A stretch of 64,000 nucleotides of DNA. Origin: an uncultured delta proteobacterium (GTDB lineage: Bacteria > Desulfobacterota > Binatia > UBA9968). Where the stretch lies: positions 704,001 through 768,000 of the forward strand of contig CAVYTU010000015.1 in NCBI GenBank assembly GCA_963771465.1. The letters are read 5' to 3'. The notes beneath the pieces were generated by a model. It had not been told where the DNA came from, made no database searches, and saw only the letters and a list, made by a program, of their open reading frames with translations. Positions 24,186 to 64,000 of the stretch are shown in pieces. A program made the translations under genes and the position numbers. Every line of letters starts with the position of its first letter. Positions within the stretch are counted from its first letter, which is position 1.

Positions 24186-24319
24186 GAATAAAACCAGCTA
24201 CCGTGTTTAGCAGAGCGAGATGACGTCCACAATCACGCAGCTCGCCTTTACCGAAAAAACTGATTGATATATATAAAGTGTCGCCAACTGTAATAGCGTT
24301 CTCACCCAAGCGAGATGTC

Positions 24320-25999
24320 ATGGCCAAAAAAAAATTAACCGCAGCGAAAAATTCGGCGGCGGTTGCGGTCCGTCAATATCCCGACCTGCACGATCACCTG
24401 GAGCGACTCGAAAGCGAAGGCTTGCTGATTCGCGTCAAAGAGCCGGTCTGTAAAGATCAGGAAATGCATCCGCTGGTGCGCTGGCAGTTCCGTGGCGGCA
24501 TTAAAGAAAAAGACCGCAAGGCATTTCTCTTCGAAAAACCGGTCGATGCGCGCGGCAAATCATACGATATCCCGGTCGCCATCGGCATTCTCGCGGCTAA
24601 TCGACAGATCTACGGCATCGGCCTAGGCGCCGATCCTGCAAAGGTGAATGAACTCTGGGCCGAAGCGAAGGCGAATCCCATCGCGCCCGTGGAAATCCCA
24701 TCCGAGGCCGCCCCGGTGCATGAAGTCGTTTACCAGGGCGCGCAATTGCAACGGCCAGGTCAAGGTTTGGACGGCATTCCGGTGCCCATTTCCACGCCGG
24801 GTTGGGACAACGCACCCTATATCAGCGCCGCGCATTTCATCACCCAAGATCCCGACAACGGTATCCAGAACATCGGCACCTATCGCGCGATGATCAAAGC
24901 GCCCGATAGGGTCGGCTGCAATCCGTCATTGGAATTGGGCCAAGGCATCTACATTCACTGGGAAAAATACCGCGCCCGCAAAGAGAAGATGCCCGCGGCA
25001 CTCTGTATCGGCGGCGTGCCGGCGATCTCCTATGTGGCGGCGCAAAAACTCAACTACGACGTCGATGAATTTGCCGTCGCCGGAGGATTGGTCAATGCGC
25101 CGATTCGCGTCGTCAAAGCCAAGACGGTGCCGCTGATGGTGCCGGCCGACGCCGAGATCATCATCGAAGGCTATGTGTCCACGGAGTTTCTCGAACCCGA
25201 AGCGCCGTTCGGCGAGTCGCACGGCCATGTGAATCCGAAAGAATACAATCCCTACATGGAAGTCACGGCCATCACCCGGCGCCATAAAGCGATTCTCTGC
25301 TCGATCATCAGCCAGGTGACACCGTCGGAATCGAGCGTGATCAAAAAGATGGCCTACGAGCCGCTCTATCTCGATCATTTGAGAAATGTTTTGGGCATCA
25401 AGTCCGTCCTGCGCGTCATGTTGCACGAGCCGCTGACCGCGACGCAGAAATTGACCATTATTCAAATGCGCAAACCGAGCCCAGCCGAGGTTTGGCGCGC
25501 GCTGATGGGCGCGGTGACGTTTCGCCCGTCGATGTCGAAGATCGTCATCGCCGTCGACGATGATATCGACCCGGACAATCTCGACGCTGTCTTTTGGGCG
25601 CTCGGGTACCGTTCGCAACCGCATCGCGACGTGCAGATTATTCGCGGCACCGACGTCGGCCACGCGCCGCGCCACGACGCGCGCGGCGGCGCCGACGACT
25701 CCTGTCTGCTATGGGATGCAACGTTGAAAGAAACCTTCCCGCCCATCTCGCTGCCGAAGAAAGAATATATGGAGCGCGCGCGCAAACTCTGGGAGCGACT
25801 GGAACTACCCAAGCTCGAACCTGAATCGCCTTGGTACGGCTACTCGTTGGGTGACTGGAATCCCGAGCTCGACGAGGAAGCCAAACTCGCCATCGCCGGT
25901 GAGTTCTGGCGCACCGGCGAGAAAATCGCGCGCCAGCGCAAACGCACCGACGAAGTCGCGGTCAACACTTCTTACTACGGCCAGCAAAAAGAGAAATGA
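24320..25999 (+). CDS. UbiD-family (prFMN-dependent) (de)carboxylase
   Basis: AFLFEKPV, QNIGTYR, VPADAEIIIEG, EAPFGESHG, VIAVDDDID. Confidence 0.92.
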   Translation: MAKKKLTAAKNSAAVAVRQYPDLHDHLERLESEGLLIRVKEPVCKDQEMHPLVRWQFRGGIKEKDRKAFLFEKPVDARGKSYDIPVAIGILAANRQIYGIGLGADPAKVNELWAEAKANPIAPVEIPSEAAPVHEVVYQGAQLQRPGQGLDGIPVPISTPGWDNAPYISAAHFITQDPDNGIQNIGTYRAMIKAPDRVGCNPSLELGQGIYIHWEKYRARKEKMPAALCIGGVPAISYVAAQKLNYDVDEFAVAGGLVNAPIRVVKAKTVPLMVPADAEIIIEGYVSTEFLEPEAPFGESHGHVNPKEYNPYMEVTAITRRHKAILCSIISQVTPSESSVIKKMAYEPLYLDHLRNVLGIKSVLRVMLHEPLTATQKLTIIQMRKPSPAEVWRALMGAVTFRPSMSKIVIAVDDDIDPDNLDAVFWALGYRSQPHRDVQIIRGTDVGHAPRHDARGGADDSCLLWDATLKETFPPISLPKKEYMERARKLWERLELPKLEPESPWYGYSLGDWNPELDEEAKLAIAGEFWRTGEKIARQRKRTDEVAVNTSYYGQQKEK

Positions 26000-26051
26000 C
26001 CGATTCGCCGCCGTGGCACGGTTCGAAGGAACACGTCCCCGAGGAGCTTCG

Positions 26052-26969
26052 ATGGAATACAAAGCGCTAAAATGGTCCGTACACGATTATCCCCAAAATC
26101 CCGGCGAGCCGTGCATCGGCGTCGTCACGCTCAATCGTCCCGAGCGGCTCAATGCCGTCGACCCGCTCATGCGTCTTGAGCTCGACGCGCTGTGCAACGA
26201 GATCGCGCGCAACTCGATTGTCAAAGTCGTGATTCTCACCGGCGCGGGACGCGGCTTTTGCGCCGGCGGCGATCTAAAATCCGAGGGCGATGTGCTTGGC
26301 GCATTCGACGGCTCCATGGGCATCACCGGTCCCTACAAAGAAATCGCCGAGTATTTTTTCAACGACTTACGTCACAAAGTATTGCAGAGCGCGATGAAAA
26401 AGCTGGAGGACTTGCCGCAAGTCACCATCGCCGCCATCAACGGACCGGCGGTCGGCGTCGGCTTGGAGATGGCGACCCTGTGCGATATGCGCATCGCTTC
26501 GGCCAACGCCCGTTTCGGTGAAGTGGCGGTGCCCGCCGGATTTGTTCCCGAAAGCGGCGGCGCGCGCAACCTACCGAAGCTGGTCGGTATCGGACGTGCT
26601 ATGCGTCTGATTCTCACCGGCGAAATCATCGACGCCAAAGAGGCATTGCGCATCGGTTTGGTTGAAGAAGTCGTAAAGCATGGCGAGCTGATGAATGCAG
26701 CATTCGCGCTCGCTGGCAAGATCGCCGCCAACCCTTATCTCTCCGTGCGTCAAGCCAAGCGCTTGGTAAAAATGTATTGGAATTGGAACCGCACCGATGA
26801 AGGCTATCAACAGGAGCTCGACGCGGTGCTCGAAATCACCCGCACCCGAGATTGCCAAGAAGGCATGCGCGCTTTCGTCGAAAAGCGCCCGCCCCACTAT
26901 ACCGACCCCTACGGCGCGTACTGGCCGTTTCCATCCAAGAGTGACGCCAAGAAAAAGCAGAAAAAATAA
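26052..26969 (+). CDS. Enoyl-CoA hydratase/isomerase family protein
   Basis: VTLNRPERLNA, TGAGRGFCAGGD, IAAINGPAVGVG, EGMRAFVEKR; GAGGAG RBS. Confidence 0.92.
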   Translation: MEYKALKWSVHDYPQNPGEPCIGVVTLNRPERLNAVDPLMRLELDALCNEIARNSIVKVVILTGAGRGFCAGGDLKSEGDVLGAFDGSMGITGPYKEIAEYFFNDLRHKVLQSAMKKLEDLPQVTIAAINGPAVGVGLEMATLCDMRIASANARFGEVAVPAGFVPESGGARNLPKLVGIGRAMRLILTGEIIDAKEALRIGLVEEVVKHGELMNAAFALAGKIAANPYLSVRQAKRLVKMYWNWNRTDEGYQQELDAVLEITRTRDCQEGMRAFVEKRPPHYTDPYGAYWPFPSKSDAKKKQKK

Positions 26970-30723: not shown

Positions 30724-32037
30724 TCAGCAGTTCACGGATTGGCCGAGATTCTTCTCGGCATTGCAGGCGCGCCGGGTTTGCTCGCTCTCTTGGCGAATCT
30801 CCGCGCTCGACGGGTCAATGGCGCGAGCCCGCTCAAGTTCTGCTAGTGCTGCTGCATAATTGCCGGTGGTCCGATATTCTCTCGCCCGGTTGAGAAAAGG
30901 CGCGATCCTTTGCCGTAATTGCTCCGCTGACGGCGGCGCAACTGGTCTCGGCTCTGGATACTGTTGAACCGCCGGCTCATCCGCTTTGACAGCCGAGGTA
31001 AGCAATTTTGATGGCTTAGTTTCCGGACGGGTTTTTACGGGTGGATCGGGTTTGACGACGGTAATGACCCAAGGGTTACTTATCAAATCGCCATGTCGCG
31101 CCGATATCTTGGCGACCCCGGGTTGGATAGCTCTGACCTGCCCGCCGCCATCCACTCTGGCAACTTTGGACTCCGTGGTATTCCACCCTACTGGAGCTTC
31201 GATCTGACTGCTGGTTCCGTCCGAGTATTCACCTTTCACGACGACCTTCAATGTTTCCCCTGGCTTAAGCTCTGATCTGTCCGCGTTTACGGCCAGCTTG
31301 AGTAAACTCGGTGTGGTCGGTGCGGTTGGTGCCGTCGGTGCGGTTGGTATTTCCACTTTCTCGATTGTTGTCTGCGTGATTTGCGGCACTTGGTGGGGCC
31401 AAAATAAATACACGCCGAACAAAATAATCAGCCCAGCGCCGCCGGCGGCAATTTTCCAGGTGACTTTCCTGGAATCAGCGACCGTTTCCGTCCTCTGCGG
31501 TTCGGTTACCTGAATGGTTGGCTGCGCCACAGGCTCAACCGCCAGCGAGTGGGATGCGCTGACCACTGGTATTTCGCTAGGGGGGTCAATGGCGTGGGGC
31601 TTTGACTCGGGCGATTCTGAACTTTTGTTCTTGACTGGTTTAACTGGTTTTCCTAGACGGGATTCGAGATCACTGATCAAACCGCGCGCGCCTGGAGCGT
31701 CGCTGGAACCGTCCCAATCGATCAGATCGGCGGCTTGGATCGCGCGAAATCCCACCGGCGGTTTCACCGGTTCGATCAGAACCGGCACGAGCTTTTGCAC
31801 CATCCGCGCTTCTTCGGCTTCTTCCTTTACCCAATCGCTGACGATCGAATTGGTCGACCACAACACGACCATACAACGCATCTCATTCAACGCGCCTTCA
31901 ATCACCGAACGCCAGGTGCGTCCGGCGGGGATACGCCGGTCCCACCACACGGTCCACCCGGCCGATTCGAGGAGCGCGGCAACTTGAAGAGCTGTTTCTC
32001 GGTCTTCGTTGGCGTAGCTTAGAAAAATCTCAGCCAT
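30724..32037 (-). CDS. TIR domain - TM helix - Ig-like (Big_2) - TPR protein
   Basis: IFLSYANED, WTVWWDRRIPAG, SDWVKEEA; TM AAGGAGLIILFGVYLFW; WNTTESKVARVDGGGQVRAIQPG; GNYAAALAELERARAIDP. Confidence 0.88.
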   Translation of the reverse strand: MAEIFLSYANEDRETALQVAALLESAGWTVWWDRRIPAGRTWRSVIEGALNEMRCMVVLWSTNSIVSDWVKEEAEEARMVQKLVPVLIEPVKPPVGFRAIQAADLIDWDGSSDAPGARGLISDLESRLGKPVKPVKNKSSESPESKPHAIDPPSEIPVVSASHSLAVEPVAQPTIQVTEPQRTETVADSRKVTWKIAAGGAGLIILFGVYLFWPHQVPQITQTTIEKVEIPTAPTAPTAPTTPSLLKLAVNADRSELKPGETLKVVVKGEYSDGTSSQIEAPVGWNTTESKVARVDGGGQVRAIQPGVAKISARHGDLISNPWVITVVKPDPPVKTRPETKPSKLLTSAVKADEPAVQQYPEPRPVAPPSAEQLRQRIAPFLNRAREYRTTGNYAAALAELERARAIDPSSAEIRQESEQTRRACNAEKNLGQSVNC

Positions 32038-54586: not shown

Positions 54587-54821
54587 ATGAATTCTCCACT
54601 TCTATTAGCATTCTTATGCAATCAGTCTTGCGCCAAAAGTTTCCATTCGGTGGCGCCGTCCGCCCATCTTGAGATGCCGAATTGGCACCTCAAGTCATGG
54701 ACTGTGATTTACTTTACAGCCATAGGGTCCGGCGATCTTAAGCAATAAAGCCACCAAACGGCAAGACCAAAACGGTCTGCGTGGTCGGTTAAGAATTGGC
54801 GGACGGTCGTGCTAGGGTTTT

Positions 54822-55166
54822 CTACAACCCGACTGCTTTCAAAGAATAGAAATCAATGCAGTTGTCGCGCAGGATTAGTTTCTTTACCCGCTCCGAAAGA
54901 TCTTTCCGCGTGCGAAAGTGGGGAATGTCGGCTAAGAATTGATCCAAGGTCGGGCGCTCATGCGGAAAATCTGACGGGTAGAGAATCTTTCTTTCCAAAC
55001 CCAAACCGACGACGTAGGAAAGAATTTTTTCTTCCAGTTCGCAGGAAAAATAAATCGAACCGTCCTTGACGTACTCGCTCGGCGCTTTGGTAAGCAAAGG
55101 CGCCTGCTGCGGCAGCTTTTCATATTTCTCGTCGAGCCGTTCCATCATATAAGGCACCCAGCCGGC
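54822..55166 (-). pseudogene. 5'-truncated amidohydrolase_2 (C-terminal third)
   Basis: AGWVPYMMERLD...PSEY...YFSCE...YPSDFPHE; a stop codon and unrelated DNA lie where FLEAG should be. Confidence 0.8.
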
Positions 55167-55472
55167 GCGTAGTTAGGGATCATTCCAACGTTCATTCACT
55201 TACCCCAGAGTAAAGACTGTGAGCGGATGCTTTTCACTATTCGATAGAGACTCACAATTTAAGCCTTGACAAGATTTGAGGAACGCAAGAGAATCCCTCG
55301 CGGTAACATGAACTTGCATTACCATACTCCTCCGTCGGGTATTAATTTTCCCCTGAAATATTGCTTCCATCTTTCGTGGCACACTCGACATCGTCGTCAT
55401 GCCAAACAACCCACAGTAGGGTGCGGCACTATACTCCTCAATCGTCAGGATCGTTAAGGCGAAATTCGGAAC

Positions 55473-57727
55473 ATGGGCAATCGTAGAGCGCTATTAATCG
55501 GTCCTCACAAGTACGGCGAAGGGTTCGCTCCCTTGCCGGCGGTAAAACATGACGTTGAACTCATGGGTTCCGTACTGGAGGCCTCTGGATATGAGATTGA
55601 GATTTGTCCACAAGATACACTCAGCAACACCGCCACGTTGGACCAAGCCATGCGTGATTTCTGTTCCACCGCTGGCCCGGAAGATACCCGGATTGTGTAT
55701 TTTACCGGACACGGGATACGCGGAGATGATAACGTGGATTCGATTGTTCCAGCGGGAACGACTCGAACGGCCGCGTTTTCCAGTGCGAGTCAGCGGGTAT
55801 CTACCGACCTCAGCAAAACGGTTGCCGCTTCGAAAGTCGGACTTGTGCTGTTCATTATCGATGCCTGTCGTGACAAAGAAGACGTTCCGATAACAAAGGG
55901 CGGTGCCGCATGGGCCGATCCGGAGCGGCTAGCGACACCAGAGGAACATCGGTTCGTCAGGTTTTTAGGCTGTGCCGCTAACGAGGTCTGTCAAATTCTA
56001 CCTTCCGGCTCAGATGAGCCGTCTTTGAGCCTCTTCACAAAGGCTTTTGCCGAAAGCATCTCGGAGTCAGACTGTGTCTCCCTAGAAGAGCTATTGCCGC
56101 ATGTCGAGAGGCGATGTACCGAGCTGCGATCCCAAAGCATCTCTCTGCAACCTCAAAAGCCCCGATTGAGCTATGGTGAGCTTTCAGTCGAAAAACAAAG
56201 GATGCTGCAAAAGCCCATCTTTGACCCCATCGGTCGGGCTGCTCTATCGACCATCTGGGAATCGTTCGATCCCAACAAATTTCACTGCCTCGTAGTTCTA
56301 TCTGAGTACGAGCATCAGAGAGTCTCCGCGCGAGGATTGGAGGATCTCGTTCGTGACGCGATCTCGGGAGAAACCGGCGAGAGAATCTGGAAATCCTTTC
56401 AAACCGCTTGCAACCTTCGGATCCTTGTCTCGGGCAGGCGGAGGACATTGTCTGACGCATACGACCCGTCAGCGGTATCGTTTGGCTCCTTCTCGGTCCT
56501 CGACGCATTTGCAAGCGCCGAAGCTCTCGATAGGGCGGTGCGCGCCATCGTCGAAGCCGATCTCGTTATTTTCGACGTCACCGGTTTCGAGCCAGGCGTG
56601 ATGATGTTCGTCGGGATCCGGTCTGCCTGCTGTAGGTCGCTCAGCATCTGCAGCCACGGAGGCGCATGGAAGGAAGGGAAGCCGCTCGAAGTGCCGTTTA
56701 ACTTGCAGGACCTCAACATCAATTCGCACACGCGCCCCGACGATCCTTCGGCTGGTATGGATCCCGTGGTGGAGCGATTCGTGCGTCGAGTCGAGACCGG
56801 CTTTCATCAGGTAGCCAAACACCCGCGCTATCTGGATCTTCCGGCTTACGACGCATTGAGGCAATTGGGATCGCCTTACGAAGCTTCGTCCACTATTGAT
56901 GTCAGCGATCGGATACTCGTTCTTTGTTCGTATTCGGCAGAATATTGGGACAATTGGGGGGACGTAAGTTCGCGCCTCAAACGGGTGCTCTCAAACAAAA
57001 AGAATTACAAAACGAAGATCGAAAGAATTATCGATTATGGCACGCCTCAGCTGATTTGGCAGGGTCTATACGAGCAAATCCGCCGGACCGCCGGTTGCGT
57101 AGTTGATTGGTCGGAATACAACGCTTCAGTGTTTTTGGAACTCGGCATCAGGCTAGCAGTCAGCGAGTGGGGAGCACTACAGATCATCGATGAAAGGTAT
57201 CTTCCCGGCGGAACAAAAGCGCCGGCATTGACTCAGGTCGAAAAAATGCGCCGCTTATTTAATCCGATTGATATCGCATTCGGGTTAACTCTTCGGATGC
57301 TATTGAAAAGGCATGCGAGGCTCTGCTACAGCGGACTCCGCACCTGGACGAGAACGCCGACTACAACCGCATTCACCGCGTATTGCTTCCGGTGATCGAA
57401 GAAATACAGGAGGCGCAACCCGGGCTCGTCGACGAGCTTAAAAACAAAGCTGACGCTCTCCATCACCCGCAGCAGGGGCGCATGGGAGCACCGCAGATCC
57501 TGTTCCACCGCAGTCGGATCGTGAAACAGAACAGCGAGAAGGCTGCTCTGGAACTGCGCATTGCTGCGTGGCTCTACCTCGAGCACCGCGTGAAAGGCAC
57601 AAGGGTTAAGGAAGATGCCTCTTCACGAAAGCTGTACCACGATCTTGGTCGCACGGTGATCGACGCCATTTACGATCTTGGCGACGATGAATCTTTGCGC
57701 TGGCTGAATTCATCGAAGACCGTCTGA
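55473..57727 (+). CDS. Caspase-like (peptidase C14) protease fused to two NDT/DRHyd-like domains; frameshift at ~57270
   Basis: RRALLIG...YFTGHG...IIDACR dyad; EADLVIFDVTGFEPGVMMFVGIR..PFNLQD; CVVDWSEYNASVFLELGIR; continues as YRIRVNSSDAIEKACEALL..RIHRVLLPVIEE. Confidence 0.8.
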
Positions 57728-58421
57728 CGCAAGTTGTAGAAACCGCCAGGGAATGGCAGGAGCAGGCAAAGTCGTATCGAAAGAAAGGCGATGCCCTGCG
57801 CAAATTTGGGCGGGAAAAGGCTGCCCAGGATGCATATCAGGCTGGAGTTGCAGCCTTAACGAGCGCGCTGCAAATACTTCGCCCAGAACCCGATCCCGTG
57901 TCGTCAATGATTCTCCCTTTGAGTGGAAAGCAGGAAGCGGCACTTGACGAACTTGTCGAAACCTACGGTGCGCGAGGCGGTATGCTGTTACGCCTAGGAG
58001 CTCCAAAAACAGGCTTTATCCAGCTACCTGGCAGGTGCCGAACTTGAAGAACGATTTGCTCGTTCCGGCACGTATAATCGCTTGCAAGCGATCAAAACCG
58101 CATTGCTTACGGGCGACAAACACTTGGAACAGCTTGAATCACAAATTCAGACGCTCGCCACACTGATCGAAACGAACTACGAACGAAAATACATTGAGCG
58201 ACAGCGGTTGGCATGGGCAGATCTCGGCGATTCCTTCGCCTTGCTCGGCAACCCGGACGATGACGCGCAGGGCCTACACGACTTTCATAGCAAAAGCTGA
58301 GATCAAGTCCCCGGAAAGAACACTCGATGTGCTGAAGGAAATTGCGGTAAAACTCGATGAGTCAAAGGATCCTGATGCAATGCGACTGCGGTTAGCATCG
58401 ATGTTTTGGATAGCCGGCTAG
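57691..58421 (+). pseudogene. TPR-like helical region, frameshifted; may be the C-terminus of the caspase protein
   Basis: Reconstructed: VVETAREWQEQAKSYRKKGD...LVETYGARGGMLLRLG / QALSSYLAGAELE..TYNRLQAIK / AWADLGDSFALLG / RRAYTTFIAKA. Confidence 0.55.
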
Positions 58422-58450
58422 CCGAGAAGAAGTTCTCTCAGGAGGCTTAA

Positions 58451-59704
58451 ATGAACGAAACTGACGAACTGTCACAGGCTATTTCGAACACATGGGACCA
58501 GATAATACCGTTACTTGGCGGAGATCGCGAGCTCTTCGAGTGTCAGCTCACCACACTTTTGCGCCGGCTCGATGCTACGGTCGACCAGGGACAAGCTGCA
58601 GTGATCCGATCAATTATTGATTTATTCCAGAAATATGATGCTGCCCACAAACTGCTCCTTAAAGCGATAAGCCAAGCCACTTCCCATCGAAACAAGGGGG
58701 CGGGCGTCCAGGCAGGATTTGTGAAGAAGGATCGGCACTCGATCGTACCAGTGTTCTACGGCACGGATCGCGCCATATCATCAGATACTTCCGTGTCCTC
58801 TCCGGCCGAACGCGGCGATCTAACGTTCGGCATCGCCGACGTGAGTATACCGGATGATCATCGAATGGGAGAAATCAAAAGCCTAACCTTGAAGCTACAA
58901 TTTCGGGAAGATCCGAATAAACACATCGTTGTGCTCAGTCTCGAACCTCTATCGGCCACTTCGTTCGCCGAGCGCGCACGCAACACCTTGAATCGGAGCG
59001 CCAAGAAGGAGGTTCTGCTTTTTGTTCACGGTTACAACGTCAGTTTCAGTGACGCAATCGCCCGCACAGCACAGATCGCCTACGACTTACATTTTGAAGG
59101 CATTCCAGCGCTTTACAGTTGGCCATCGGAGGGAGCGGTACTTAGGTACGCGGTGGACGAGACGAACGTCACCTGGTCTCGCCCGCGGTTTGCGGAGTTT
59201 CTCGCCACAATTAAAGAGAAGTTGGGAGCTGAAACCGTCCATATCATCGCCCATAGCATGGGGAACCGTTTGGTTGCCGAGACTATCGCTACCATGCCAC
59301 CTGCCGCTTCGAATCGAGGTGCTCGCATAAGACAAATCGTGTTCGCGGCGCCGGACATCGATGCCGCGACTTTCAAAGATTTAGCGATTGGCTTTTTGAA
59401 TAAGGCCGAGCGTTTCACGTTGTACGCGTCGTCAAATGACAAAGCTCTCATGATCTCTCGGGGGATTCATAAACACCCACGGGCAGGTGATTCAGGTGTC
59501 GATCTTGTCGTTCTTGACCCCCTCGATACAGTCGACGCGACAGCCATCGACACCAGTTTGTTAGGACACTCCTATTATGGCGATAATCGATCCGTAATAA
59601 CGGACATCTTTGAATTGGTTCGGCGTGGCACGGCGCCGCATGAACGGTTCGGACTCTCCGCCAAAAGCAAGTACGGCGCACGCTATTGGTTATTCAATCC
59701 ATAG
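58451..59704 (+). CDS. DUF900-type alpha/beta hydrolase with an extra N-terminal helical domain
   Basis: GGAGG RBS; VFYGTDR, VSIP..H, LFVHGYNV, YSWPS, IAHSMGNR, AAPDID, YASSND, GHSYY. Confidence 0.9.
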   Translation: MNETDELSQAISNTWDQIIPLLGGDRELFECQLTTLLRRLDATVDQGQAAVIRSIIDLFQKYDAAHKLLLKAISQATSHRNKGAGVQAGFVKKDRHSIVPVFYGTDRAISSDTSVSSPAERGDLTFGIADVSIPDDHRMGEIKSLTLKLQFREDPNKHIVVLSLEPLSATSFAERARNTLNRSAKKEVLLFVHGYNVSFSDAIARTAQIAYDLHFEGIPALYSWPSEGAVLRYAVDETNVTWSRPRFAEFLATIKEKLGAETVHIIAHSMGNRLVAETIATMPPAASNRGARIRQIVFAAPDIDAATFKDLAIGFLNKAERFTLYASSNDKALMISRGIHKHPRAGDSGVDLVVLDPLDTVDATAIDTSLLGHSYYGDNRSVITDIFELVRRGTAPHERFGLSAKSKYGARYWLFNP

Positions 59705-59887
59705 CCGAGCCGGTATTCGCAACGTTATCAGCGTCCGAGCAACTGGTCTTCCTCCAAGCATCGCGAGGCACTAACACATACATTTAGGAACCGACTCAAC
59801 AATCGCAAGCGTTGATGATAAATATAAACGTGTCTCGTCTCTCGATTTGAAGTCCTTCAAAGCAAAACCGACCTGGTTTTCCGCTAT

Positions 59888-61900
59888 TTATTCCAGCAGC
59901 TTTCGCGCATCGAGATGGACAAACGTAGCGCCCGCTATCTTGGGCTCGTTTAATCGTGTCTTCGGTACCGCCTGGCGCCATCGCCCGTGGCGCCGTTCCA
60001 CAACGCAATCAAAGTCAAATGATCCTGCGAAATAGAAAGCGCGTTGTGGAGCATCCAGAGATTGGAACGCTGCCAAATATCGTAATCCTTCTTCGCCCGA
60101 AGCCAGCGGGGCAATCGATCTGAATCGGAAAGAATCTTTGGCTTGAGTTTGTCGTAGAGGCGATTGAAGCGCTCGACCCAATCCGGCCCGCTGTCGCCAC
60201 CGAGGCCTTAATGTAATCGCTCTTTCGGCAAGCACCAGGTACATCTGGCTTGGTAATGTTTAACTCTTCGCAGACTTCGTGAAACAGAATATCGCCGCCG
60301 GACGCGCCGCCGGAAATACCGAGTAATTTCCGTCTTTGATCGCTTCTGCCTCCTTGTCACTGCTTCGAAAATCATCGCCCGCGCCTGCTTCTCCTTTAGC
60401 CGCAGGAAAGCGCGGGCTTTGCGATCCGGAGCGTCGATCGCGATGGCCAGTAAACAAAATCACTCGCGGCGGCGGCTTCCTGATGGCTTTGCACGGCCAC
60501 CGGCGCGATACTTTCGAGACCCGCTTGAATATTTTCCTTTAGAATTCCCGAGACGCTGATAAAGCAACAGTTGCCGTCGCACGGCATCGCGCGCGTGATC
60601 CGACGCATCGGTGAGAGCTTTGTTGTAAGCCTGCGCGACCCGATTCGGTCGTCGTGGAGGTCAAACAAATCAGATCCGCGGTGCTGATGTCGACCCACAC
60701 GTCGGTTTTATCAGTGCGCTGCAACGCGACTTGTTTCGACTCGATCGCGAGCCGAACGCCGGCAGCGAGATCGTTGCGCAACTCTTTGAGCTTCTGCAAT
60801 CTTTGTTGGCATCTTCTTCAGAATCGAAGTTGTCTTGCCAGATGGTTGCTTGACGTTGAGCCAACTCAACCATCATCGTCACCATCGCCAAAGCGTTCAG
60901 GCCCGAGTAAAAATGATTTCGGTCTTCGATAAACCCGGCGCGGTAAAGCTCGAAAGATTTCTCCAAATACTTCGAGGTCAGAGCCGCCTTCTGTGCGGCG
61001 TCAACATGTCGTCAAATGTCGTCCAGCTCTGCTCCCATTGATTCTTGGCGTTTCGCCCTATCAACGCACGAATTTCCGCGCGTCCATTCGCGGAAATCTC
61101 TTGGTTTTGCAGTGCCCGTTCGACGGCGTGATCGGAGCTGACCAGATCGCCAAGGCGTTGAAAGATCGTTCCCAGCATCGTGTTGGCTTCCACGTCCATG
61201 TCGTCATACTCGCGCACCGCCGTCCAAGTGACCTTGGCGCCAGGCCAGTCTTTGAGGCGAAATTGAGCGTTGGCCGATCAGGCGCAAGCCGGCAATCTGC
61301 CAGGCGAAGCCGTCGACCTCGGCAGCCAACAATTGCAGATCACCGCAATTTCTTCGCTGCCTCGACCCGTTCGATCTCTTCGCGAAAATCGAGCGGAACC
61401 ACCAAAACATCCTCCGGATCAGCTGGCTTCAAGGCGGGCAGCAATTGATAAATCGGGCTGTCGGCTTTTTGCGAATCCATAGTGAGTTTGAGCGCCGCAG
61501 CAAGAATGTCCACAGCCCCGCCAGTTGATTTGGATCGTAGACCAGATAACGGTCGGTTTTCAGATCGAACGGCACGTCAGTATCCTTGGCATCACGTTCT
61601 CCCGGTGTGAGCTTGTTTGGATTTGATAAGAAACGTGCGTTTATCGCGCAATGCGTGACGAATGCCTAGTTCGTAAAATGCATTGGCATTGTGTATCGAG
61701 ATGTCGGCAATCACCAGATCGGCGACGAGCAATTGCTCGAACATATCGGTTCGAATGTTGCCTTGCTGTATGAATTCGACGGTGGTGCCGCCAGTCAAGC
61801 CGGCCTGCGCCATTGCCGGGCGAATGAGATCTTTTTCGACTTGATCAAAGTTGATGCCGCTTTTTGTGCCGAATGGACGAACGATAAAAACGTTCTTCAT
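59888..61900 (-). pseudogene. DRHyd/NDT-like - TPR (MAP3K TRAF-binding-like) - SLOG-like protein, many frameshifts (~670 aa reconstructed)
   Basis: GAGGAG RBS; VFIVRPFG..ADLVIADISIHNANAFYELGIRHALR..VPFDLKTDRY; EANTMLGTIFQR, GRNAK, HFYSGLNA; ILFTGHR..PRFP, GGASGGDILFHE, WQRSNLWML, IALWNG..GGTED..LLE*. Confidence 0.8.
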
Positions 61901-61967
61901 GGTCTCACTCCTCATTCCGCTTAGCCGAGCATCTGCGTCAGTCTTGAGAATTGGCCCCTAATTCCAA

Positions 61968-63146
61968 TTAGCAACCGACGAGATCGAAATTCGACGGAAA
62001 ATCCTCGCCGCGAACTTGCTGCTTTGCCGCCCGCGCGCCGACTTCTTGCAACGTTGCCATGTTGGCGGGATCGTCCATCGCGCTCAAGGTTTCGAGCTTG
62101 TGCATGGGGCAGAGCCATACCAAGCGACGTCAGCGAATCACCAGTTAGCAAACATTGTAACGCAGATAAGTGATCAGCGGCGCCGGCGCGATCGAATCAT
62201 TGCGCAAGTCGCCCATCTCCCGATCGATTTCGCGCGCGGTCCGGCTGCGCGACATCCACTGCAGCAAGAGTTCCATCAGATCGGCGCAATCATCCATCAC
62301 CGAGAATCACGCCTTCAACGCATTGTCCGTCGGCCAAGATTGCCGGCGCAATTTTCGGGTCCGCGGCTGCCAGTGCCGACGGAAACCAGCAAGCAACTTG
62401 TCGGCGCCCATCGGCCAACCAATACGGTAGCCATCGAAAGTCGCATACATAACCGCCTGAAGCGCGGGATTATTAAACGGGCTGACGCCGCCATCGACGA
62501 ACTCGCCTGACGGATCTTGCTGATCCAGTTGCCCTGGAGCGATTACGATTTTTTCCGGATTGAAATAGCGCGGCGCCGCCGTGGAAGCGCGCACCACTTG
62601 CCAGAGTGGATATTCGGAATTGGCGCACGACGCTCTGATTCGGTCGCACATCGTAATACCGGCCGCGCGGATTATTCGAGATCGGCCAGGGGCTGCCGCT
62701 ATCGAGTCGCTTGGTGATCACCAGCAACCCGGTCTGCAATCGACGCATCGCCCATTGTCGTATTGGCTGCCATAGACTTCTTTCAGCTCTTTGATCAGTT
62801 GCGCTTCGTCATAGAACGCCCGGACATAGCCGTCGCGAAACCAGCTTTTTTGAAACACTCTTTGCCCGAGGTCGATATACTTTTTGATGATCTCCGCCAC
62901 GCCATGCCGCAGCGCCAACGCCGCCGCAATAATCGCACCGGTGGACGTGCCGGCGATCAGATCGAAATAGTGAGCCAAGCGAAAATCATTGCTGCCACCG
63001 TGCCGCTGTCTGAGCAGCGACTCGATTTCGGCGAGATACGATAAAGTGAGAATACCGCGCAGGCCGCCACCGTCCAAAGCTAAAATGCGCTTCGGGCCGG
63101 CGTCGTTGAAAAAATGTTCGTCACGGTTTCGGATTTTGTAAGCCAC
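61968..63146 (-). pseudogene. Patatin-like phospholipase, frameshifted in the 3' two-thirds
   Basis: AAGGAG RBS, GTG start; RILALDGGGLRG, AGTSTG, VRASTAAPRYF, VDGGVSPFNNP; ends ...FPSNFDLVGC*. Confidence 0.85.
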
Positions 63147-63321
63147 AGCCGTCTCCTTAACTTTGATGCCCTTAGAATATCACTCTTTGAAATTGTTGCG
63201 CAGCTCAATTCCATCGTCAACGGATCATTTCGATTGACACAGAGCACGTGCGGCGGTATGGAAGTCACGGTTTGATTCGGATGAAGCCAGGAGAAGCAAA
63301 TCGGCAAGGAGGACATATTCA

Positions 63322-64000
63322 GTGAATGCCTCATCACCCACGCGCGGATTGATTTTGGCTTGCTTGATCGCCACTTTTGCGATCGGTCTGGCCGAAGTTT
63401 TTGGCCAGACTCAAATTCTTGGCGGCGCCAAAGAACACCAACCGAGTTATGGTGAGCTGCAGGACTTCACGATTCTCTCCTACAGCGATCTCGACGGCTG
63501 GGATCAAGCCGCCGAGTTTCGCGTCAGCAAGGACGGCAAGCACGCTTACATTTCCAATTATCAAGGTTTCAGCATCGTTGACGTAAGTGACCCGTCAAAA
63601 CCGCGTGTGATCTCGAAAGTCAAGAATGATCCCAGCGTGCAGAGCCAGTACATTGATATCCTGGGAAACACTCTAGTCATAAACCAGGACGGGGTTCGCG
63701 ACGAGAAGATCAAAACTTGGGCCGGCGGTATTCGCCTGTACGATATCAGCGATCCGACAAAGCCGCGCGAAGTGGGTTTCTTCAAAACCGACGTTACGCC
63801 GCGGCGCGGGGTCCATGGGTTTTGGCTCCACGAGGATCCAAAACAAGGAAAATTCGCATTCCTCGCGACGACAAAGGAAGGTTACTACGACAATATTCTA
63901 ATGATCATCGATATTAACGACCCAGCCAATCCAAAAGAGGTCGCAAGATGGTGGTTTCCGGGTCAGTGGACCGCAGGAGGTGAAAAACCCGGCGACAACT
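63322..64000 (+). CDS. LVIVD-repeat secreted protein, 3'-partial
   Basis: AGGAGG RBS, GTG start, signal peptide, FSIVDVSDPSKP, IRLYDISDPTKP, LMIIDINDPANP; open to the window end. Confidence 0.85.
   Translation, partial: MNASSPTRGLILACLIATFAIGLAEVFGQTQILGGAKEHQPSYGELQDFTILSYSDLDGWDQAAEFRVSKDGKHAYISNYQGFSIVDVSDPSKPRVISKVKNDPSVQSQYIDILGNTLVINQDGVRDEKIKTWAGGIRLYDISDPTKPREVGFFKTDVTPRRGVHGFWLHEDPKQGKFAFLATTKEGYYDNILMIIDINDPANPKEVARWWFPGQWTAGGEKPGDN

Follow-up and report, generated by a model that had tools for sequence, protein, structure and literature searches.

The stretch of DNA analysed here, called the window in the following, comprises 64,000 nucleotides (nt) from an uncultured member of the Binatia (G000:C15:704001-768000; the genome has 6.9 Mb in 19 contigs). 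Close to its right end two operons meet tail to tail, separated by 183 nt. System A (55473-59704, + strand) encodes a protein made of a caspase domain, two domains of the TIR/DRHyd class (deoxyribosyltransferase/deoxyribohydrolase-like), a helical linker and a TPR module, followed by a hydrolase of the DUF900 family. System B (63146-59888, - strand) starts with the gene of a CapV-like patatin and continues with that of a sensor composed of DRHyd, TPR-S and SLOG domains. A first-pass annotation had listed these domains and joined them into one convergent signalling system. The inventory is real: caspase, DRHyd-class, TPR, DUF900, patatin and SLOG domains were all detected by Pfam, hhalign or fold comparison. 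The joining did not hold. We show here that each cassette is conserved in its own right and independently of the other, and we propose, with a probability of about 0.6, that the locus consists of two independently conserved two-gene cassettes of the nucleotide-signal/abortive-infection type, placed tail to tail at one insertion hotspot.

The first gene of System A (55473..58421, + strand) runs through four frames in the window. It opens as an open reading frame (ORF) of 640 amino acids (55473-57395) and reading goes on in three further frames, with changes near 57272-57281, 57697-57700, 57999-58007 and 58182-58300. The intact fused form of this gene is represented by P0018, a protein of 988 amino acids from a metagenome-assembled genome (MAG) of the Verrucomicrobia. 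A separate TPR gene, as annotated in the first pass, does not exist: pieces without stops match residues 1-597, 596-737, 739-844, 847-944 and 906-974 of P0018 one after the other, so that the supposed TPR gene is the 3' part of one frameshifted caspase gene. Homologues of this gene number 136 at E<=0.001. The caspase domain (55482..56129, + strand, residues 4-219) belongs to the Peptidase_C14 family (PF00656, E 5.7e-19, 69.2 bits against a cut-off of 21.4), and its His/Cys dyad is intact as predicted, H80 and C132 being invariant in 16/16 aligned homologues. The model of P0018 (mean predicted local distance difference test score, pLDDT, 84.7) superposes with residues 1-250 on MALT1 (3v4o; Z 21.8, root-mean-square deviation (rmsd) 3.2, 222 aligned residues). 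A whole-model Foldseek search of P0018 against the PDB returned caspases or TPR proteins only and does not inform on the small domains.

The two middle domains, D1 (56247..56828, + strand), with an invariant F-E-P motif and a PFNL motif, and D2 (56889..57290, + strand), with an invariant E-L-G motif, resemble the N-terminal domain of the System B sensor. In hhalign comparisons D1 aligns with this domain over 63 columns (probability 89.6, E 1.9e-6), which supports D1 as a putative TIR/DRHyd-class domain, and its E115 is invariant in 14/14 sequences. D2 aligns with the same sensor domain (probability 81, E 1.2e-5), and the similarity of D1 and D2 to each other is weak (probability 37.8). In fold comparisons with VIA-align, D2 (residues 469-620 of P0018) matches TIR domains with Z 10.4-11.7 (SfSTING TIR 11.7, MyD88 TIR 10.8) and the 2'-deoxyribosyltransferase 7o62 with Z 10.7 (rmsd 3.2, 122 aligned residues). 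Common to D1, D2 and the sensor N-domain is an invariant Glu in an aromatic-E-x-G motif, which we take to be the catalytic Glu position of deoxyribosyltransferases and DNPH1-type enzymes. The TPR module at the 3' end (57700..58421, + strand) is recognised by generic TPR families of Pfam in the homologues. It is not recognisable as TPR-S, lies outside the PF20308 family and is unrelated to the TPR-S part of System B (hhalign probability 1.2).

The N-terminal effector of this protein family is not fixed. Among the 120 homologues listed, 99 carry a caspase, three a TIR domain, four a trypsin and three a TIR domain together with a trypsin; the remaining 11 have no recorded Pfam domain. The System A scaffold has an exchangeable N-terminal domain, which can be a caspase, TIR or trypsin, and these natural swaps delimit the sensor core. 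As a separate observation, an IS1595-family transposase (PF12762, E 1.7e-30; L013:11549-12496; loci of relatives are numbered with L) splits the caspase-2xDRHyd gene of a Bryobacterales MAG between the two middle domains.

The second gene of System A (58451..59704, + strand) is intact and encodes an alpha/beta serine hydrolase of 417 amino acids that belongs to the DUF900 family (PF05990, E 1.4e-47, 162.6 bits against a cut-off of 20.5). In front of the hydrolase core, about 95 N-terminal residues form a helical region. The catalytic triad S271 (HSMG), D304 (PDID) and H375 (GHS) is invariant in 10/10 sequences. The same holds for Lys81 and Arg94 of the linker that leads to the core, which varies at its other positions. 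Together with the patatin (PF01734) this protein accounts for the two hydrolase/lipase genes of the first-pass annotation, each of them with catalytic motifs. NCBIfam held nothing for the DUF900 protein or for the System B sensor. A complex prediction with residues 600-988 of P0018 and the DUF900 protein of the same locus gave no answer (scores 0.00/0.00) and is uninformative either way. In two MAGs of Alphaproteobacteria the DUF900 genes (L005:12974-14228 and L014:4937-6185) give split tblastn matches, which suggests stops or frameshifts there too; those assemblies are perhaps also long-read assemblies.

The patatin-like phospholipase gene of System B (61968..63146, - strand) has GTSTG and DGG motifs and matches PF01734 in two pieces of 56.7 and 28.5 bits; an intact homologue reaches 86.6 bits, placing the protein in the patatin family. 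PADLOC assigns the window patatin to 'Effector Phospholipase' (E 1.3e-29), and its phospholipase effector model PDLC00758 matches the System B patatin with E 6.7e-44. The sensor gene (59888..61915, - strand) is broken into about 15 frame pieces that lie in order along P0121, an intact protein of 665 amino acids, and are 56-100% identical to it. TPR-S (PF20308) is found in P0121 with 33.4 bits against a cut-off of 27.6, and its matches in two window pieces score low (19.6 and 22.6 bits) because the sensor gene is split. Within the System B family TPR-S matches 26/27 members at E<=10 (best 1.4e-13) and the ASK-type TPR family PF13281 gives sub-threshold matches in 8/27; PF05014 and the SLOG families of Pfam match none of the 27.

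The N-terminal half of the sensor mirrors that of the animal kinase ASK1, as had been proposed for the combination of DRHyd and TPR. When the model of P0121 (mean pLDDT 79.3) was compared with 48,161 chains, the best match was the central regulatory region of ASK1 (5ulm; Z 16.4, rmsd 3.8, 244 aligned residues, model residues 167-470). The fourth match was a truncated ASK1 (8qgy) that is colinear with the sensor from residue 6 to 471 (chain residues 95-555, Z 15.1, rmsd 11.2); the high rmsd shows that the orientation of the two domains differs or is poorly predicted. For helical repeats a Z below about 13 is common background, and the ASK1 match lies only modestly above those of other TPR proteins (a Rap regulator has Z 15.2). 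It agrees with TPR-S in 26/27 and the sub-threshold PF13281 matches in 8/27 family members. The second match, which covers the C-terminal part of the model (residues 474-665), was B. subtilis YpsA (2nx2; Z 15.6, rmsd 3.6, 160/178 aligned), and DprA (3uqz) matches the same part with Z 11.6. By fold, the domain predicted as SLOG-like thus belongs to the SLOG superfamily. A whole-model Foldseek search of P0121 against the PDB returned TPR proteins only. The nearest Atlas feature clusters, to be taken as leads only, are nucleoside 2-deoxyribosyltransferase for the N-domain (0.90, 179 shared features; the ASK DRHyd cluster has 0.84) and YpsA-family clusters for the SLOG domain (0.87). Among the best 120 of 2976 matches, which come from MAGs labelled Deltaproteobacteria, Verrucomicrobiae and Binatia, identity over the first 100 sensor residues is 81-98%. 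Such conservation across labels suggests recent horizontal spread or a very strong constraint. Elsewhere in the genome, at G000:C17:413361-413648 (L069), there is a second TPR-S match of 70.6 bits in a frame of 214 amino acids that is unrelated to P0121 by tblastn.

In the loci compared here, the two cassettes were not found together. A scan of a genome collection with the caspase protein gave 38 loci, 15 of which (L002-L016) match through the middle domains; the other 23 (L017-L039) match with the caspase domain only and were dropped from the counts. TPR sequence lies downstream of the caspase gene in 15/15 System A loci and DUF900 comes next in 11. L016 has a second caspase in the DUF900 position and L012 an unassigned gene of 413 amino acids; the third-gene position is exchangeable as well, being taken by DUF900, a caspase or an unassigned gene. 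Pieces of the sensor gene were found in none of the 15 loci, eight of which have at least 5 kb of sequence beyond DUF900. A metagenome scan with P0121 gave 19 System B loci, 15 of them with usable upstream sequence. Patatin stands directly upstream of the sensor in 13 of these 15, with the gene body in 11 and only the 3' end, at a contig edge, in two; L053 and L060, which have one common context, are without an upstream patatin. Caspase, System A TPR and DUF900 were found in 0/19. The co-occurrence check suggested with the first-pass annotation, run here on 15 System A and 19 System B loci, therefore speaks for two systems and not for one.

Synteny leads to the same conclusion. The right border of the island is an LVIVD-repeat gene (63322..63999, + strand), which adjoins System B in the syntenic loci as well; it is 74-80% identical to the genes adjoining patatin in L046, L048, L052 and L059, and the L052 copy has PF08309 (E 1.6e-22). 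On the left the island is bordered by the remnant of an amidohydrolase-2 gene (54822..55172, - strand). About 110 C-terminal residues are left of it, which are 79-82% identical to the C-terminus of full-length genes of 361 amino acids in L047, L049, L052 and L059 (80% for the syntenic L052/L059), and the L052 protein matches 'Amidohydrolase 2' of the PDB (8sm7, E 5.8e-26). Both flanks are those that the first-pass annotation had named. The gene order in L052 and L059 is LVIVD, patatin, sensor, an NMT1-type binding protein, the full amidohydrolase of 361 amino acids, ABC genes and VOC. The window keeps LVIVD, patatin, sensor and VOC (86% identity), and System A occupies the place where L052 and L059 have the binding protein and the 5' two thirds of the amidohydrolase gene. 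Because the syntenic L052 and L059 carry System B alone at the same site, System A was inserted beside a resident System B. Compared with L052:10017-14642, window positions 54587-55472 are without the NMT1 gene, the 5' two thirds of the amidohydrolase, the ABC ATPase and a 588-amino-acid NMT1 fusion gene; sequence on either side of the amidohydrolase remnant was deleted along with the insertion of System A.

Three of the four genes are interrupted in the window by a total of about 33 small frame-breaking indels, four in the 3' third of the caspase gene, about ten in the patatin and 19 in the sensor. Repair by alignment, as suggested with the first-pass annotation, was run against homologues and metagenome contigs; it mapped the indels and favours consensus errors. 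None of the 19 sensor indels is shared by any of four intact metagenome homologues (84-89% nucleotide identity). They consist of 15 insertions (13 of one base, one of two and one of four) and four one-base deletions, mostly outside homopolymers. The patatin indels, found in the window only, are eight one-base insertions and two deletions. Short-read contigs from four soil-metagenome runs of one study, which may be the window's own source sample, were aligned to positions 55400-63300. There are 19 contig records listed with at most one substitution against the window. Four of them, each with exactly one gap, cover the four caspase-gene frame changes (X3 record 20, X1 record 3, X4 record 26 and X2 record 14), and the other 15 have no gaps. 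The two sensor indels predicted at 61522 and 61610 are covered by two records with three and seven substitutions, and each of these records has two gaps. In all four runs, no contig that covers 61610 has the extra base. Substitutions in the window lineage fall on codon positions 1/2/3 in the numbers 27/11/74 (66% third), and those of the intact homologue lineages in the numbers 18/12/45, 8/7/22 and 21/14/59, indicating that selection on the reading frame has not been relaxed in the window lineage.

We consider it quite probable that the genes are intact in the organism and that the frameshifts are artefacts of the consensus, because four indels against zero to one substitution in about 1.3 kb are unlike natural mutation, because the substitutions keep a coding pattern, and because one-base insertions without larger deletions are unlike the decay of pseudogenes. 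The sensor gene is covered two to three times as deeply as the flanks, which is consistent with the idea that reads of close homologues from other organisms disturbed its consensus. A decaying, non-functional island, in which the indels are real and the genes are pseudogenes, appears improbable to us. Three of four genes do carry 4, about 10 and 19 frame-breaking indels, and relatives are damaged too, as the IS1595 element in L013 and the split DUF900 matches in L005 and L014 indicate. Moreover, the rest of the window apparently holds long intact ORFs, so that the errors would have to be local and confined to the island; the contig comparison rests on gap counts per record, and most of the printed sensor indel rows come from one 93.5%-identical contig, which belongs to a relative and not to the same strain. 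However, decay does not explain why single gaps at the frameshift sites are all that sets contigs with zero to one substitutions apart from the window, nor the third-position bias that the window has in common with intact homologues, nor the predominance of one-base insertions and the lack of larger deletions. A local burst of consensus indels can thus make live genes resemble pseudogenes.

Further observations weigh against the reading of two nucleotide-signal cassettes. The three DRHyd domains claimed in the first-pass annotation hold up through the shared motif and hhalign, but the fold scores of D2 are tied between TIR and deoxyribosyltransferase, so that fold does not separate these identities. 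PF05014 gives sub-threshold matches in 9/40 members of the System A family (best E 0.0015), and neither PF05014 nor PF20309 matches the window pieces, so that the DRHyd assignment stays below threshold at the level of Pfam. When profiles of the four small domains (D1, D2, sensor N-domain and SLOG) were run against the sequences of the PDB, nothing came up below E 0.1. A patatin occurs near System A in 2/15 loci, in both without the sensor: that of L003 is intact (377 amino acids), divergent and located 850 nt upstream of System A, and that of L016 lies in two frames beside an integrase-like ORF. There may hence be a looser link between patatin and System A. Neither operon encodes a TIR protein or another obvious signal generator. 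tblastn with four TIR queries against both sets of loci found none either, a weak search that missed a region of L016 which looks TIR-like by eye. The genome has at least seven TIR_2 genes, three of them clustered at G000:C9:260101-270512, and such genes could generate signals in trans. In the window itself a TIR_2 ORF of 437 amino acids (30724-32037, - strand; 89.2 bits, over the cut-off) lies about 23 kb from the island.

The genomic neighbourhood gives a divided picture. Among 126 neighbour proteins of 13 System A loci, scanned without a control set, there are ZorA3 (8e-215), PD-T4-6 (3e-127), AbiEii (1e-71) and MADS genes; L013 and L015 contributed no neighbours, and the set shrank from 127 to 126 when L012:3-7721, an ORF of 2573 amino acids, was left out. 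For System B, PADLOC found only mad3 (four proteins) and mad8 (one) among 56 neighbours of 11 loci (62 before six L060 neighbours, duplicates of the L053 context, were left out), and the neighbours look like housekeeping genes, with Pfam matches to CopD, NMT1, SBP_bac_5 and glycine reductase. Since the System B loci are partly syntenic, they are not independent samples. Defence genes thus lie beside several System A loci, and for System B such matches come down to mad3 and mad8. In scans of viral contigs, limited by their search patterns, relatives of the sensor did not turn up, and the sole match for System A was a generic caspase. The full-length sensor was found in 0/400 other genomes of the phylum, one of which has a match to the SLOG part only. 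For both cassettes we infer that they serve defence, which ligands they use and in what order their parts are activated. For System B the argument is built on its characterised relatives, its patchy distribution and N-domains that are 85-98% identical across phylum labels.

It is unlikely, in our judgement, that the cassettes are real and serve something other than defence against phages, namely that a social soil bacterium uses them for regulated dormancy or self-destruction, that they act in antagonism between bacteria, or that they do nucleotide and lipid housekeeping under stress. The housekeeping surroundings of System B and its lack of defence enrichment would fit such a role, as would the absence of either cassette from the viral contigs scanned and a secreted bactericidal phospholipase of archaea among the DUF900 relatives. 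Against it stand the patchy distribution, with the full-length sensor found in none of 400 other genomes of the phylum, the sensor N-domains that are 85-98% identical in MAGs labelled as different phyla, the swapping of N-terminal effectors in the System A family, the defence genes beside several System A loci, and the anti-phage function of the nearest characterised relatives. One integrated five-gene system, in which the DRHyd domains of both operons make and read one signal, shared by caspase, DUF900 and patatin and turning them on together, could draw on the tail-to-tail arrangement at 183 nt, the motif common to all three DRHyd-class domains and the patatins of L003 and L016, but is made very improbable by the sensor in 0/15 System A loci, System A in 0/19 System B loci, System B alone at the same site in syntenic relatives and the unrelated TPR modules. 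What survives of the original signalling idea is that conflict-type cassettes pair TIR/DRHyd/SLOG-class domains with protease and lipase effectors; the single system does not.

How far are the two cassettes of our reading new? No system model of PADLOC v2 or NCBIfam covers the locus, and PADLOC reports only a generic caspase, a phospholipase effector and a weak TIR match. The earlier claim of an undescribed system has to be divided: the half with patatin and DRHyd-TPR-SLOG appears by its architecture to belong to the ThsI/BcTpr class, which was predicted before and has been tested in part, whereas the half with caspase-2xDRHyd-TPR and DUF900 is absent from the literature and libraries searched. 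That literature gave no description of the latter combination, within a scope that did not cover the two Aravind-group papers that are the likely primary sources on DRHyd/TPR-S systems (Burroughs et al. 2015, NAR; Burroughs & Aravind 2020, J Bacteriol). System A is apparently an undescribed, rare modular architecture, probably a new variant in which the N-terminal effector can be exchanged.

System B, compared by description, is a member or variant of the ThsI/BcTpr class, although its exact fusion was not confirmed as listed in the accessible parts of the two preprints, whose supplementary tables may list these exact architectures. Type VIII Thoeris consists of a TIR protein that makes canonical cyclic ADP-ribose (cADPR) and the effector ThsI, which has a CMP-hydrolase domain and a TPR predicted by Aravind and colleagues; added cADPR is specifically toxic to cells expressing the system, from which its authors infer activation of ThsI (10.64898/2025.12.03.692087). 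The N-terminal DRHyd-class hydrolase and the Aravind TPR of ThsI correspond to the core of the System B sensor, a likeness drawn from the description and not from a sequence comparison. Type VIII Thoeris has an adjacent TIR gene, whereas the System B operon is without one and adds a YpsA-like SLOG domain and a patatin; the ThsB/TIR model matches 0/56 neighbours of the 11 System B loci, and the window locus has no TIR gene. BcTpr is described as a NADase of an anti-phage operon whose N-terminal glycosidase domain makes a cADPR isomer; a census of 78 operons counts the core Tpr alone in 29, Tir-Tpr in 28, YspA-Tpr in 5 and Patatin-Tpr in 4, and the 'Tpr-centred assemblies' are credited to Burroughs & Aravind 2020 (10.1101/2023.05.26.542521). 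The BcTpr core thus has an N-terminal glycosidase and a TPR like the System B sensor, and patatin and YspA are among its partners; for the tandem-DRHyd caspase with DUF900 of System A, the accessible part of that preprint offers no counterpart.

Other known systems share single elements with the locus. The patatin of System B is closest to the CapV-type phospholipase effector models of the cyclic-oligonucleotide-based anti-phage signalling system (CBASS), but stays below the equivalog cut-off: the intact homologue at L052:6763-7929 scores 111 bits against the CBASS_lipase model of NCBIfam, where 200 are required (E 5.9e-32). A CD-NTase, which would mark a CBASS operon, was found neither in the window locus nor among the 56 System B neighbours. 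Type IV Thoeris has, like System A, a caspase-fold protease fused to a presumed nucleotide-binding module, in its case a C-terminal domain thought to bind N7-cADPR as a dimer. System A differs from it in that the sensor is a tandem of TIR/DRHyd-class domains with a TPR, that the conserved operon has no TIR partner gene and that a DUF900 hydrolase is co-encoded; the caspase model of PADLOC aligns at positions 5-130 of 453 only, which does not identify a type IV Thoeris protein. The caspase part also matches SAVED-CHAT (8tl0, Z 13.2). The System B sensor superposes on the regulatory region of ASK1 (MAP3K5) but is without its PH or kinase domain; a SLOG domain follows instead. This SLOG is YpsA-like and fused behind DRHyd-TPR-S, whereas the SLOG of ThsA is fused to SIR2.

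Based on these comparisons, System B would work like a type VIII Thoeris/BcTpr module, with the DRHyd-TPR-S-SLOG protein as sensor and nucleotide-processing core. TPR-S and the YpsA-like SLOG domain might perceive a cue of the ADP-ribose type or another nucleotide, the DRHyd domain with its invariant Glu might cleave NAD+ or nucleotides, and either the product or the complex would activate the CapV-like patatin, which would then degrade membrane lipid. The cue could come from TIR proteins elsewhere, since no TIR is encoded alongside, from the SLOG domain itself or from a phage. System B would extend the ThsI/BcTpr class to a form without TIR that has its own SLOG and lipase, raising the question of what makes or replaces the cADPR signal; the at least seven TIR genes of the genome could act in trans. 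In its structure the sensor, a bacterial protein, is moreover a close counterpart of the ASK1 N-terminal half and bears on the origin of the regulatory region of this animal stress kinase.

System A might act as a single polypeptide in which D1 and D2 form a pseudo-dimeric ligand-binding or catalytic site that gates, together with the TPR, the N-terminal caspase. Deoxyribosyltransferases build their active sites across a dimer. Substrates of the caspase would be cell proteins and possibly also the lipase-like DUF900 hydrolase encoded next to it, in whose linker Lys81 and Arg94 are candidate cleavage sites for a MALT1-like protease specific for basic residues. System A would then be a compact case of a caspase gated by nucleotide-class domains, with a possible relay from protease to lipase. 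Only tentatively do we take this further, to an unrecognised and self-contained immune or cell-death module: the tandem DRHyd pocket would read or make a nucleotide signal in place of SAVED, CARF, SLOG or Macro sensors, the TPR would restrain the effector, the caspase, TIR or trypsin would be released, and the caspase would cut the Lys81/Arg94 linker of DUF900, converting a lipase zymogen to an enzyme that destroys membranes. If true, such a protease-lipase relay would parallel the protease-activated gasdermins of bacteria.

Two minor observations are added. The region L016:4272-9500, upstream of the fused System A gene in a Planctomycetota MAG, encodes a protein of 1004 amino acids that has a TIR-like N-terminus by eye and WD40-like repeats, and also holds the patatin in two frames and integrase-like ORFs. 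A screen of the rest of the window for frameshift-like ORF junctions found mostly ordinary gene junctions; two coding-like ORFs at 24224-25996 and 25728-26966 (+ strand) lie in different frames and overlap by 269 nt, which reflects either a frameshift or an ordinary upstream extension.

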